NCBI GenBank assembly: GCA_964016885.1
Contig: OZ024763.1
Span: 1,984,001-2,048,000 of the forward strand
Source of the DNA: Eledone cirrhosa
Lineage: Eukaryota
Direction of reading: 5' to 3'
DNA: 64,000 bases
This document shows, piece after piece, positions 9,599 to 60,575 of this stretch (positions are counted from its first letter, which is position 1; each line of letters starts with the position of its first letter). Both the position numbers and the translations under genes were made by a program. The notes beneath the pieces are model-generated. The model was not told the DNA's origin. It saw nothing but the letters and a program-made list of their open reading frames with translations, and ran no database searches.

Positions 9599-9662
9599 AT
9601 TTTATCTGAAGAAGGCATGCCATATTTTTAATATGGTATCCCTGAAATATGTATAATGAAAT
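9599..9662 (+). ncRNA. Type I hammerhead ribozyme motif (family H1) in a TA-flanked element, 9527-9795
   Basis: attttat CTGAAGA [agg..atgccatatt ttt aatatggtat..cct] GAAA tatgt ATA^ atgaaat. Confidence 0.7.
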
Positions 9663-10246: not shown

Positions 10247-10677
10247 TTCTATATTAAATATTTAGACTCTGCTATGTATTGAGTACTTTACTTACTGTGG
10301 TTACCCCTGATTGAACCCGGGATATATACAAACACACACATACATACACACACACACACACATACATATATATATATGTGTGAAAAATTTTGGACCCCAA
10401 TGGCTGAGCTCTTGCCATTTCAACAGCTGGATCCTAACTCAGTTTGGAGCTCAGCTGTCAGAGTCCCAAATTGTTCATATTACCCACTCTACTACCCCAA
10501 GTATTGAATACTCTGGTGAGTAATGGTCTAACTGCTTTTTACTGATTCCGCCAGCACCAACAGTTTTTCAGTTTTGCAAGAGATGTCAACATGAATGGAC
10601 CTATTATTTTTATCTAAAGACATTTTTTCCAATTCCATCCCGCCCGTCCCCTTAATCTATTTTATTTCTCATTCTTT

Positions 10678-14643: not shown

Positions 14644-14731
14644 GTACGAGTGTGTAAGTATATAAACTTCTATGCCATATATATACATATATTTATATAT
14701 TTATGTATATATATATATGGATATATATGTA

Positions 14732-14866
14732 CAGAATTAGCCATCGAAACGGCTTGAGCTCAGCCGTCGGGGTCTTACTTGTTCCTATTACCCATTCTAC
14801 TACCCTAAGTATTGAGTACTTTGGTGCGTTATGGTCCACCTGGTTCCTTACCACATTTCCTTCGTT
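14732..14866 (+). mobile_element. HHR family H2 element, 3' half of the ribozyme plus tail
   Basis: cagaattagccatc GAA ACGGC ttgagctca GCCGT C^ ggggtc...ccttcgtt(at)n; near identical to 41101-41235. Confidence 0.75.
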
Positions 14867-14901
14867 ATATATATATATATATATATTATAAATATATATA
14901 T

Positions 14902-28670: not shown

Positions 28671-30165
28671 CTACCCCTCTCCATCTCTCCTACCTCCCCC
28701 TCTTCTACTCCTTTCTCTCTTTCCCTCTCACTCTTTTTACCCCCCCCCTCTCTCTTCCATGGGGGTTTTCATATAGAAGGGGATAAAGTTGACTCATGTG
28801 GAAAAGGAAAATGAGAGAGAGGGGGTGTTGGTGAGAGAGAGAGAGACCCTTAAACAACACTTGATCTGCCCCCCCCCCCTTCTCTATCATCTCTCCTTAA
28901 TCTTCTGTTCCCTATTCCAAGCCTGGTGGCAGTGGTGGTGATGGTGTTGGTGGTAGTAGTGTGGTGGTGGGTGGTGGTGGTGTGGTGATGGTGTTGGTGG
29001 TAGTAGTGTGGTGGTGGTGTGGTGATGGTGTTGGTGGTAGTAGTGTGGTGGTGGTGATGGTGTTGGTGGTAGTAGTGTGGTGGTGTGGTGATGGTGATGG
29101 TGGTGGTGGTAGTAGTGTGGTGGTTGGTGGTGTGGGATGGTGATGATGGTGGTGTGGGGTGGTGATCGTGATGGTGATGATGGTGATGGTGATGGTGATG
29201 ATGGTGGTGGTGGTGTGAGTAAGGACAGGTGGTTTTAAAATTATGTCTTTCTCTGTGTGTGTGTGTGTAAAATTATCTTTCATGTCGAAACGGCTTGAGC
29301 TCTGCCGTCGGGATCTTGAACATTTTCCTATATATGTGTGTGTATGTGTGTACCTGTAAAATTATTTGTGTTTATGAAAGTATGTGTGTGTGTATTTCTA
29401 TATATGTTTGCCAAATTACTTGTGTGTTTCTATATGTATATGTGTGTATGCTTGCGAAATTACTTGTGTGTGTGTGTGTGTGTGTTTATATGTGGGAACG
29501 TGTGTATGTTTACCAAATGACTTATCTGTGTGTGTGTATGTGTTTATATGTGTATACGTGTACCAAATGACTTATCTGTGTGTGTGTGTGTCTGTGTGTT
29601 TATATGTGTATACGTGTTTATGTTTACCAAATGACTTATCTGTGTGTGTGTGTATGTGTTTATGTGTGTATGTTTACCAAATGACTTATCTGTGTGTGTA
29701 TGTGTTTATATGTGTATACGTGTGTATGTTTACCAAATGACTTATCTGTGTGTGTATGTGTTTATATGTGTATACGTGTGTATGTTTACCAAATGACTTA
29801 TCTGTGTGTGTGTGTGTGTGTGTGCATGTGTTCATATGTGGGAACGTGTGTATGTGTCTGTTACATTATTTGTCTATGTGTATACACGTGTGTATTTGTA
29901 TATCTGTTTGTATAACTATATATCTGTGTGTTATTGTGTGTGAATGCATTTATAAAAATATGTGTGTGTGTAAATGTGTGTGTTTGTGTGTTTGTGCGTG
30001 TGTGTATGTATCTGTGAACATACACACAAGTAATTTAGCAAACATAGACACACATATAAACACAGAGATAGACAATTAGTTTGACATACACACACACACA
30101 CAAACATATGCACAAATATAAACACATACACTTTCATAAACACACAATGTTACAAGGATGTACAT

Positions 30166-34861: not shown

Positions 34862-35169
34862 AATTAAGAGAGTAAAACAAAGAATCCTTTAATACATCAA
34901 AAGTTTTTATTAGCCGACAATGTTTCGTCCTATTAAGGACTCATCAGGGCAATCAAAACAACAAGAGGTAATTTCGGCAGATACAAGCCAGAAACTCTGA
35001 AGAATATGGAGTTTACATACACTAATGTCTTACGAGTTTCTGGCTTGTATCTGCCGAAATTACCTCTTGTTGTTTTGATTGCCCTGATGAGTCCTTAATA
35101 GGACGAAACATTGTCGGCTAATAAAAACTTTTGATGTATTAAAGGATTCTTTGTTTTACTCTCTTAATT
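34862..35169. mobile_element. Palindromic HHR element, 136-bp arms and 36-bp spacer
   Basis: 34862-34997 is the reverse complement of 35034-35169 and is followed by (TA)n. Confidence 0.9.
35075..35124 (+). ncRNA. Canonical-core minimal type I hammerhead ribozyme (mirror copy on minus strand, about 34907-34956)
   Basis: ttgattgcc CTGATGA gtcct taat aggac GAA AC att GT C^ ggctaataa. Confidence 0.88.
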
Positions 35170-41041: not shown

Positions 41042-41046
<5 letters not shown>

Positions 41047-41232
41047 AAGCAGTAAGACCCTGACGGCTGAGCTCAAGCCGTTTCGACGGCTAATTCTGTC
41101 CAGAATTAGCCGTCGAAACGGCTTGAGCTCAGCCGTCGGGGTCTTACTGCTTCCTATTACCCACTCTACTACCCTAAGTATTGAGTACTTTGGTGCGTTA
41201 TGGTCCACCTGGTTCCTTACCACATTTCCTTC

Positions 41233-41235
<3 letters not shown>
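41042..41235 (+). mobile_element. HHR family H2 element folded back at the stem II loop
   Basis: Arms 41042-41098 and 41101-41157; GAAA at 41115, helix III ACGGC/GCCGT, GTC^ at 41135-41137; (TA)n on both sides. Confidence 0.85.
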
Positions 41236-41290
<55 letters not shown>

Positions 41291-41307
41291 TATGTATATA
41301 TGTGTGG

Positions 41308-41345
<38 letters not shown>

Positions 41346-41351
<6 letters not shown>

Positions 41352-41638
41352 AGATCAAAAGATGGTTAAAAGAGTTCCATGGATTTTATTATGCGCATTT
41401 CAAAAACAAATATCATGCAATAACATTTGCGTTTTTGTCAGATAAAATAGGAAGATATGACATGAAATGTTATTGCATGATGATATTTGTTTTTGAAATG
41501 CACATAATAAAATACATGGAACTCTTTTAACCATCTTTTGATCTTATATATTATTTATACTCCAGTCCTACAAACTGTAGAGTGCTTCTTATCCGATATC
41601 TGCATTGCTTTATTGTACTACAATAAAACTCACCACCT

Positions 41639-41640
<2 letters not shown>
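41346..41640. mobile_element. Palindromic H1-related element with an HHR on the minus strand (41383-41448)
   Basis: Arms 41346-41427 and 41465-41551; minus strand attttat CTGACAA [stem II] GAA AT gcgc AT A^ ataaaat. Confidence 0.75.
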
Positions 41641-41689
<49 letters not shown>

Positions 41690-42090
41690 AAAACAATGAA
41701 ATAAAAAATCAAGTCATTAGAGATATACTTCACTGCTTTACGATCGTTTCTAGATGGTGATAATACATTGTATCTATACTCAGTTATTGATCTATGTAAG
41801 TTTACAAACTATCAGATAGAGAGAATATTTACTTACATGCATATCACCAGCTGTTTTCAAAAGCTTAACCTACAACATTTTCAACATATGGATTACATTG
41901 AGTTCTTCATACAGAAAAGACCCCACAACTTACAGTGGATACCTCTGTGTATATATAATGCGATGAAATACCAATGATGGTTGGCAAATCACTGATGAGG
42001 GACTAATTTTATAATATGTAATCCATGTGCAACCATGCAGTATTCTTCTCCCCTTGTTTTTCACATATATATATATATATATATAAATAG

Positions 42091-42125
<35 letters not shown>

Positions 42126-42156
42126 TATATATGTGTATATATATATATATATATAT

Positions 42157-42350
42157 AACAAAGGAATTGTGGTAAGGAACCAGATGGACCGATAACGCAC
42201 CAGAGTACTCAATACTTAGGGTAGTAGAGTGGGAAATAGGAAAAAGTATGACCCCGACGGCAGAGCTCAAGCCGTTTGGACGGCTATTTCGAATCCAGAA
42301 ATAGCCGTCGAAACGGCTTGAGCTCTGCCGTCGGGGTCATACTTTTTCCT
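42157..42350 (-). mobile_element. HHR family H2 element folded back at stem II
   Basis: Palindrome 42238-42350 centred near 42294; the tail matches the reverse complement of 41157-41235. Confidence 0.85.
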
Positions 42351-60212: not shown

Positions 60213-60217
<5 letters not shown>

Positions 60218-60301
60218 AACGAGTAGGACCCCGACGGCTGAGCTCAAGCCGTTTCGACGGCTAATTATGATCCACCTGGTTCCTTACCACATTTCCTTCG
60301 T

Positions 60302-60302
<1 letters not shown>
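60213..60302. mobile_element. Internally deleted HHR family H2 element
   Basis: Inverted arm up to the stem II tip, joined directly to the family tail ccacctggttccttaccacatttccttcg. Confidence 0.75.
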
Positions 60303-60338
<36 letters not shown>

Positions 60339-60339
<1 letters not shown>

Positions 60340-60494
60340 GTAGTTCCACAATAGTTAGTTCACCATACCGAGAGGAAATGTTTCACCTTATTTGAATCCT
60401 CAGCTTGGTCTAAATGACATTTAGACTGAGCTGGGGTCCAAATAAGGTGAAACATTTGCTCTCGGTATGGTGAACTAACTATTGTGGAACTACT
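60339..60494. mobile_element. 156-bp hairpin element carrying an HHR 3' half
   Basis: Palindrome centred at 60417; GAAAC at 60449, GTA at 60465; TA-flanked. Confidence 0.65.
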
Positions 60495-60575
60495 TCTACC
60501 AAACTCGTCCCATGGACTGAGTGCTCTACTACTACAGATGTAACCCTCCAGTGTTCTACTATTATATATGTGTGT

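Follow-up and report, generated by a model that had tools for sequence, protein, structure and literature searches.

What produces short palindromes that turn within the sequence of a hammerhead ribozyme? The window analysed here, meaning the whole 64-kb stretch of DNA, contains two such palindromes. The initial annotation placed their axis exactly at the loop of ribozyme stem II and attributed it to a cDNA that folds back on this stem and primes its own second strand, or else to a single hairpin element copied many times. Both palindromes were found, and 11,605 like them (centre of 0–30 nt) are present genome-wide, far beyond chance, as the reversed-pattern control gave 0; a further 1,483 have a centre of 31–60 nt (reversed-pattern control, again 0). 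Judging from their sequence, the palindromes are short insertions into (TA)n of a Penelope-like retrotransposon (PLE) of the Hydra clade. The family is new and high-copy; the clade and the architecture were already known. The palindromes probably originate from reverse transcription of one RNA, primed by each of the two nicked target strands; both cDNAs would run off where this RNA has its capped 5' end and then be joined head to head.

Pattern and locus listings identified six copies of the family in the window (Table 1). Positions are numbered from +1, the A of a TTAGT-type motif in the native pLTR (L031:4970), which would be window position 41097 in copy A. Each of copies A and B consists of an inverted arm of ~57 nt and a direct arm of ~135–140 nt, with (TA)n at both ends. 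The direct arm of copy A carries, in order, the 3' strand of stem II, GAAA, helix III, the cleavage site, the 3' strand of stem I and the tail. Copy B has the same layout on the minus strand, with a 3-nt filler between the arms. As first described, the axis is followed by GAAA, helix III and the GUC triplet of the cleavage site, and an inverted 3' half takes the place of the ribozyme 5' half. Two features had been missed: the tail of ~80 nt, present on one arm only, and a G-to-C change in the GAAA of copy B. The copy at 14732 does start at the axis; the inverted arm at 60213, said to end there, ends only near it. Copy A is of one subfamily and copy B of another; the two are oriented towards each other, and the stretch between them at 41352–41545 itself looks palindromic. 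The repeat search of the window was dominated by TA repeats. The window gave 299 Rfam matches; the 150 of them listed include no hammerhead and are only microsatellite-driven, miRNA-like noise.

Table 1. Palindromic copies and related features in the 64-kb window (arm positions relative to +1).
Feature	Window position	Strand	Remarks
Copy A, inverted arm (+61 to +5)	41042..41098	-	abuts (TA)n with its fixed end, +61
Copy A, direct arm (+2 to +140)	41098..41236	+	
Copy A, GAAA	41115-41118	+	
Copy A, predicted cleavage site	41137/41138	+	
PLE 'tail' (~80 nt)	41158..41236	+	between the fixed outer ends +61 and +140; one arm only
Copy B, inverted arm (+59 to +3)	42294..42350	+	second subfamily
Copy B, direct arm (+7 to +140)	42156..42290	-	with tail; GAAA mutated
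Single-arm copy	14729..14867	+	starts at +2 (or +5) right after TA repeats; no inverted arm
Copy with non-overlapping arms	60213..60303	+	inverted +61 to +8 (60213-60266), direct +102 to +140 (60265-60303)
Older palindromic copy	10393..10537	+	same family, ~80% identical
Lone arm (+16 to +61)	29284..29331	+	TA repeats at its end
Second palindromic family, control	60341..60565	+	turns near 60417, again at the initiator-like motif; a hammerhead-like motif lies downstream of this axis

The parent element was identified from four of the first 30 loci, which ran on upstream without inversion (the query began at the axis); extension of the sequence led to a Penelope-like element. Locus L193 encodes, downstream of the pLTR, an open frame of 786 codons in which we recognised by eye the reverse transcriptase (RT) motif YRDD and VIY...YIG (GIY-YIG) near the C-terminus, and open frames of ~784 codons are present in many other copies. 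The unit is ~3.5 kb long, and the family has over 16,000 copies, most of which are palindromes of a solo pLTR. Searches of the element protein against Pfam, NCBIfam and PDB profiles gave no match. The protein has DKT in place of DKG and RWR where the Hydra clade has RWK and, by eye, a CxCx5C linker and CxxC plus CxH around conserved E and N, with no CCHH. Also present are a pLTR arising from partial tandems, an inverted 5'-truncated partner and a one-sided tail. These motifs, together with a by-eye likeness to published Hydra proteins, support assignment to the Hydra clade. The elements are not non-LTR retrozymes: short copies are solo and lack the hammerhead 5' half, and the tandems are coding units of 3.5 kb.

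Parts of the study of Hydra-clade EN+ PLEs (Craig et al., 2021, PMC8557442) describe the same features, namely a C-terminal GIY-YIG, DKT, an RWK-like motif, the CxCx5C linker, CxxC plus CxH, a (TA)n target, a pLTR hammerhead, a tail and an inverted 5'-truncated partner. The N-terminus of Hydra-1_Obim, given in the supplement of that study, is visibly alike to that of our element protein by eye. However, the element described here is a different family from Hydra-1_Obim, with a ~3.5-kb unit, a U3-A8 core, a 5-bp helix III with a palindromic loop and a loop II of ~40 nt. The tail is ~80 nt, compared with the 30–40 nt given in PMC8557442.

The pLTR encodes a hammerhead ribozyme, as expected of the hammerhead-bearing retroelement initially proposed, and a search for intact versions yielded 4,694 copies by pattern count (25 YUGANGA and 4,669 YUGANAA). 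Only five of the 25 have the canonical C3-G8. The U3-A8 core, a variant already described for PLEs in parts of PMC4209133, predominates among intact copies. The ribozyme is of type I, with a stem I of 5 bp, a stem II of ~7–8 bp, a loop II of ~35–40 nt and a helix III of 5 bp closed by a palindromic loop. It has the features of the PLE variant of this type: the core boxes, three helices, G10.1-C11.1, an extra base after A9 and the palindromic loop III. In the assigned register 91% of 360 cells are paired, versus 27–58% when it is slid. The predicted fold of L193 contains the three-way hammerhead in both the MFE and the centroid structure (z -0.25), and the fold of L031 is without it; 18 close copies gave no excess of covariation over shuffles. 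Positions 3 and 8 are U-A in 68, U-G in 18, C-A in 7 and C-G in 4 loci of a set enriched by pattern. The mismatched C3-A8 core is present in 16 of the first 100 intact copies listed and marks a successful subfamily. This core should be poor at cleavage and, given these copies, the element may not depend on an active ribozyme.

The axis falls within the 3' portion of the native loop II. In intact copies the native 5' arm of stem II is another sequence, so the hairpin first read as stem II is the inversion itself, its 5' arm being an inverted copy.

Genome-wide numbers are counts of exact patterns over 3.0 Gb, and ratios between them are rough since the patterns vary in length and strictness. 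The tail pattern matched 16,801 times, and the first 90 matches, all on C1, served as a census sample that is anchored in the tail and avoids the bias of queries begun at the axis. The subfamily of copy B lies outside this sample, as its tail pattern matched the window copy alone. The direct arm starts within -5 to +10 in 49 of the 90, further downstream in 32, beyond -70 in eight and between -70 and -6 in one, and inner ends pile up at -4 to +8. The outer end is fixed: 88 of the 90 end in TA at +140, and the other two continue into the ORF. An inverted partner is present in 68 copies, and 60 of these partners terminate at +61. In each of at least four subfamilies the junction varies among copies; thus the palindromes do not turn exactly at the loop, and the inversions arise anew at each insertion, in keeping with the recurrent mechanism first suggested.

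We also identified 22 long loci, with multimers of up to about five units, which have the same two outer ends (+61 and +140) wherever both are in view. The ORF may lie on either arm: on the +61 arm in L193, L204, L205, L208 and L212, and on the tail arm in L202, L207, L209 and L210. Jumps from +1 to internal positions occur in L037, L107 and L118. Summed contig depth steps at +1 by ~12-fold in run X1 and 16-fold in run X4, in runs from one study, possibly the source of the assembly itself, that cannot show RNA ends. Arrays of 4–5 near-identical 3.5-kb tandem units lie in one arm of L194–L197 (G000:C1:91.47–91.49 Mb and 437.19–437.22 Mb), and the L195 junction holds at least 14 repeats of a ~58-nt piece; these suggest a rolling or repeatedly jumping RT.

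Of 120 loci, 61 allowed a gap-free comparison of the two arms, and in 59 of these the arms share the three-site subfamily type (25% expected). The arms of one copy are thus more alike than those of different copies, as anticipated, which implies one template or one source per insertion. Gene conversion between arms does not account for this concordance, since rare variants occur on one arm 68 times and on both arms 2 times. At junctions G000:C1:126409561, 126023349 and 86726012 the arms differ at sites polymorphic between subfamilies, possibly as two-RNA chimeras or through later point changes. Arm lengths are within 10 nt of each other in 42 of 62 palindromes. The inverted arm is longer by at least 10 nt in 17 and the direct arm in 3 (P 0.003), an excess of 14 versus 2 after removal of L053, L073, L122 and L088, which microhomology makes ambiguous. 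The arms do not overlap in L052, L086, L103 and the window copy at 60213. In L101 the +61 arm extends to -532 and its partner starts at +53. Junction centres are A/T runs, short templated duplications or microhomologies of 0–2 nt, and appear typical of end-joining.

These features are well accounted for if each arm is primed separately, at +61 and +140, on the two target strands. Both cDNAs would run off at the RNA 5' end, at +1, and the host would join their ends via microhomology or templated filler. Separate priming at these sites, run-off and end-joining explain arms that are asymmetric, non-overlapping and concordant, and ends that are fixed. Since the start lies inside loop II, RNA started at the promoter would lack the 5' half of the ribozyme; the core would never be in the template, rather than being destroyed by folding. 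Template jumps at +1, or RNA that is multimeric, circular or the product of read-through, could give rise to the long insertions.

The strongest alternative for the palindromes, close to the view of Arkhipova et al. (2013) as set out in parts of PMC3846280, is self-priming after run-off. A cDNA primed at +140 would reach the RNA 5' end, add a few bases, snap back by microhomology and copy itself to +61, where it would join the TA flank, with any asymmetry due to later deletions. Arms would be identical at insertion and, as found, most copies near-symmetric; these near-symmetric arms and the arm concordance fit a snap-back of run-off cDNA equally well, PLE junction palindromes are interpreted in this way in PMC3846280, and post-insertion deletions could make part of the asymmetry that we attribute to separate priming. 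However, under self-priming the inverted arm should not exceed the direct arm in length, and the excess observed (17 versus 3) is in the opposite direction. Nor can it produce non-overlapping arms or L101, and in the long insertions either arm is the long one. In many junctions A-runs face T-runs, or 0–1 nt separates the paired arms, which leaves too little room for a hairpin to prime. We thus regard self-priming as distinctly unlikely, and priming from both target strands as the preferred reading.

The position at which both cDNAs would run off is a putative transcription start. The axis motif matches a metazoan initiator (consensus TCAKT/TTAGT), and a second initiator-like motif is present at -4. 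A TATA-like element at -29/-31 is found in some subfamilies only, and is absent from the control family. In 18 of 67 distinct TA-flanked loci the base before +1 is a non-native G, versus 0 of 97 intact pLTRs; this count was made by hand from 100 rows listed, and five of the 18 follow a short inverted stub, 13 being without a nearby stub. Both arms reach +1 in 4,092 loci. In 50 of these, counted by hand, the 100 arm ends are followed by A in 63 cases, C in 20, G in 12 and T in 5; C follows on both arms in six loci, and A and C are mixed once. This sharing of the next base indicates that the two arms tend to have one common 5' end. An extra G is the mark of capped full-length L1 insertions, as reported in parts of PMC11702581. 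We infer from sequence alone that +1 (and -4) would be the transcription start of the pLTR, and that the G before it would be a copied cap. Against the promoter reading, the stop is near the apex of an extended helix II in the predicted fold; thus, position alone cannot separate promoter from structure in this Penelope family. A splice acceptor with trans-splicing was rejected as an explanation of the axis motif: copies retain the AG and the upstream T's, and no common leader is joined to them.

A second palindromic family with its own fixed ends, of which there are at least 2,592 candidates genome-wide, served as a control (the first search pattern for it matched the window alone). All six of its exact palindromes turn at the same initiator-like motif, as do ~15 of 30 top loci, a set biased by a query that began at the axis. 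Its axis is ~10 nt upstream of an intact hammerhead-like motif, the ribozyme being assigned by eye. This family turns outside its hammerhead, so the axis follows the initiator-like motif and not stem II.

Fold-back of the cDNA on native stem II, or on its helix IIb extension, in which the ribozyme fold would dictate the architecture, is largely refuted by the junctions listed. In its favour, the axis does lie in loop II, close to where the predicted extended helix II has its apex. However, such a fold-back should leave native loop II in the centre and, by eye, this loop is kept there in none of the first 50 of the 1,483 palindromes with 31–60-nt centres, and the apical loop in none of the 50 loci with both arms at +1. 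The supposed 5' arm is not native, the arm-length excess and the control-family axis run counter to fold-back, and the non-native G is left unexplained; we consider this mechanism very improbable. A single hairpin master copied many times, whether a MITE or a non-autonomous palindrome, would suit the very high copy number and uniform length but is hardly credible, as junctions vary among copies within at least four subfamilies, the one-sided tail makes the ends asymmetric rather than the fixed terminal inverted repeats of an ordinary MITE, and full-length RT-coding insertions are bounded by the same ends.

A minor class of palindromes, in which both arms end near +42, points to a second template end at the ribozyme cut site. 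There are 275 of these, versus 8 for an interval of equal size at +28. By hand count, the first 50 include 26 with both arms at G+42 and non-native filler between them, 15 that are blunt and readable as CG microhomology, and nine that pass on one side. An interval at +49 gave 207 copies; among the first 100 rows ~45 reach +42 and 1 passes it. One-sided stops are rare, with 228 one-sided junctions in all, of which ~9 of the first 100 start at G+42. The template of the class with both arms at G+42 was quite probably RNA already cut by the hammerhead, and this sequence pattern suggests self-cleavage in vivo.

For this class alone, RT may instead have stalled at the base of helix III, whose end is two bases short of the stop. 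Read by eye, the control family has no clean stop at its predicted cut (~10 of the first 50 stop there and ~20 pass), and no reads ending at the cut site were found in Anolis RNA-seq in the parts of PMC11167929 that treat it; both points favour a stall. However, a stall should include the unpaired C+41, which the 26 filler-bearing junctions exclude, and independent stalls predict one-sided stops by the thousand rather than the 228 one-sided junctions found. One stall may also have blocked both RTs on one RNA. Cut RNA as template fits better, and a stall appears unlikely, if a more serious contender here than self-priming is for the palindromes as a whole.

Much of the architecture has precedents: parts of PMC8557442, PMC3846280, PMC4209133 and bioRxiv 10.64898/2026.07.22.740005 report inverted partners, tails, TA targeting and hammerheads in the pLTR. 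Penelope of Adineta vaga (Arkhipova et al., 2013, PMC3846280, in part) shares the head-to-head inverted pLTR, the one-sided tail and TATA/Inr-like pLTR motifs. Self-priming, perhaps on an antisense template, was inferred there from few copies. In contrast, the more than 10,000 junctions available here separate the proposed models of Penelope insertion and favour two primings on one sense RNA.

In vitro, the protein of Poseidon PAc cuts both strands and extends them, and reverse transcription begins at two internal sites between which the tail lies (Frangieh et al., 2024, PMC11167929, in part). PAc and our element have in common an AT-rich target and a tail bounded by two sites. The main text of that study, in the sections that bear on these points, does not treat palindromes or head-to-head joints, and reports that reads at the ribozyme cut were absent. 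Twin priming in L1 shares with the process proposed here a second priming from the other target strand, microhomology end-joining and an extra G at capped 5' ends (PMC11702581, in part). In L1 such priming is occasional and its sites variable; here it would be the rule (68 of 90) and take place at a single fixed site, close to the 5' end of the RNA. L1 twin priming and 5' inversions were reportedly described by Ostertag and Kazazian in 2001.

In the portions of the literature covered (Penelope twin priming, self-priming, transcription start, cephalopods and in vivo cleavage), we found no twin-priming, cap-G or cut-site argument. Work by Evgen'ev with Arkhipova (2005), by Arkhipova (2006 and 2017), Schostak (2008) and Lunse (2017) may anticipate parts of ours. 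The mechanism of tandem and inverted PLE insertion and the role of the hammerhead are stated as open questions in parts of PMC8557442 and PMC11167929.

Taken together, obligate twin priming may be the normal mode of Penelope insertion, with a pLTR promoter inside the hammerhead, the ribozyme acting as a switch and the genome holding a record of cleavage in vivo; we advance this combination tentatively. A dimer would prime both target strands at two fixed RNA sites, from which the tail, long without an explanation, and the head-to-head repeats would follow. The ribozyme would be complete only in read-through or downstream copies, and would decide between 140-nt products, which are dead ends, and templates that are long or circular. 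The junctions map the likely transcription start through its cap signature and suggest ribozyme-cut RNA as a germ-line template. If this is correct, the genome is a record of how a Penelope transposon copies itself, and includes the first in vivo record of Penelope hammerhead cleavage, at single-base resolution and over hundreds of insertions. Junction counting can be used in any PLE-rich genome.

Other hammerhead-like sequences are present in the window. Two canonical short hammerhead motifs of another family lie head to head at 34947 (-) and 35084 (+), ~140 nt apart, and probably represent one more PLE insertion, in which the two ribozymes are both intact. Positions 9606, 34608, 37317, 42551 and 46199 hold yet another repeat family; it has a CUGANGA core and a variable stem II and lies beside TA repeats, and one of its copies adjoins copy B.
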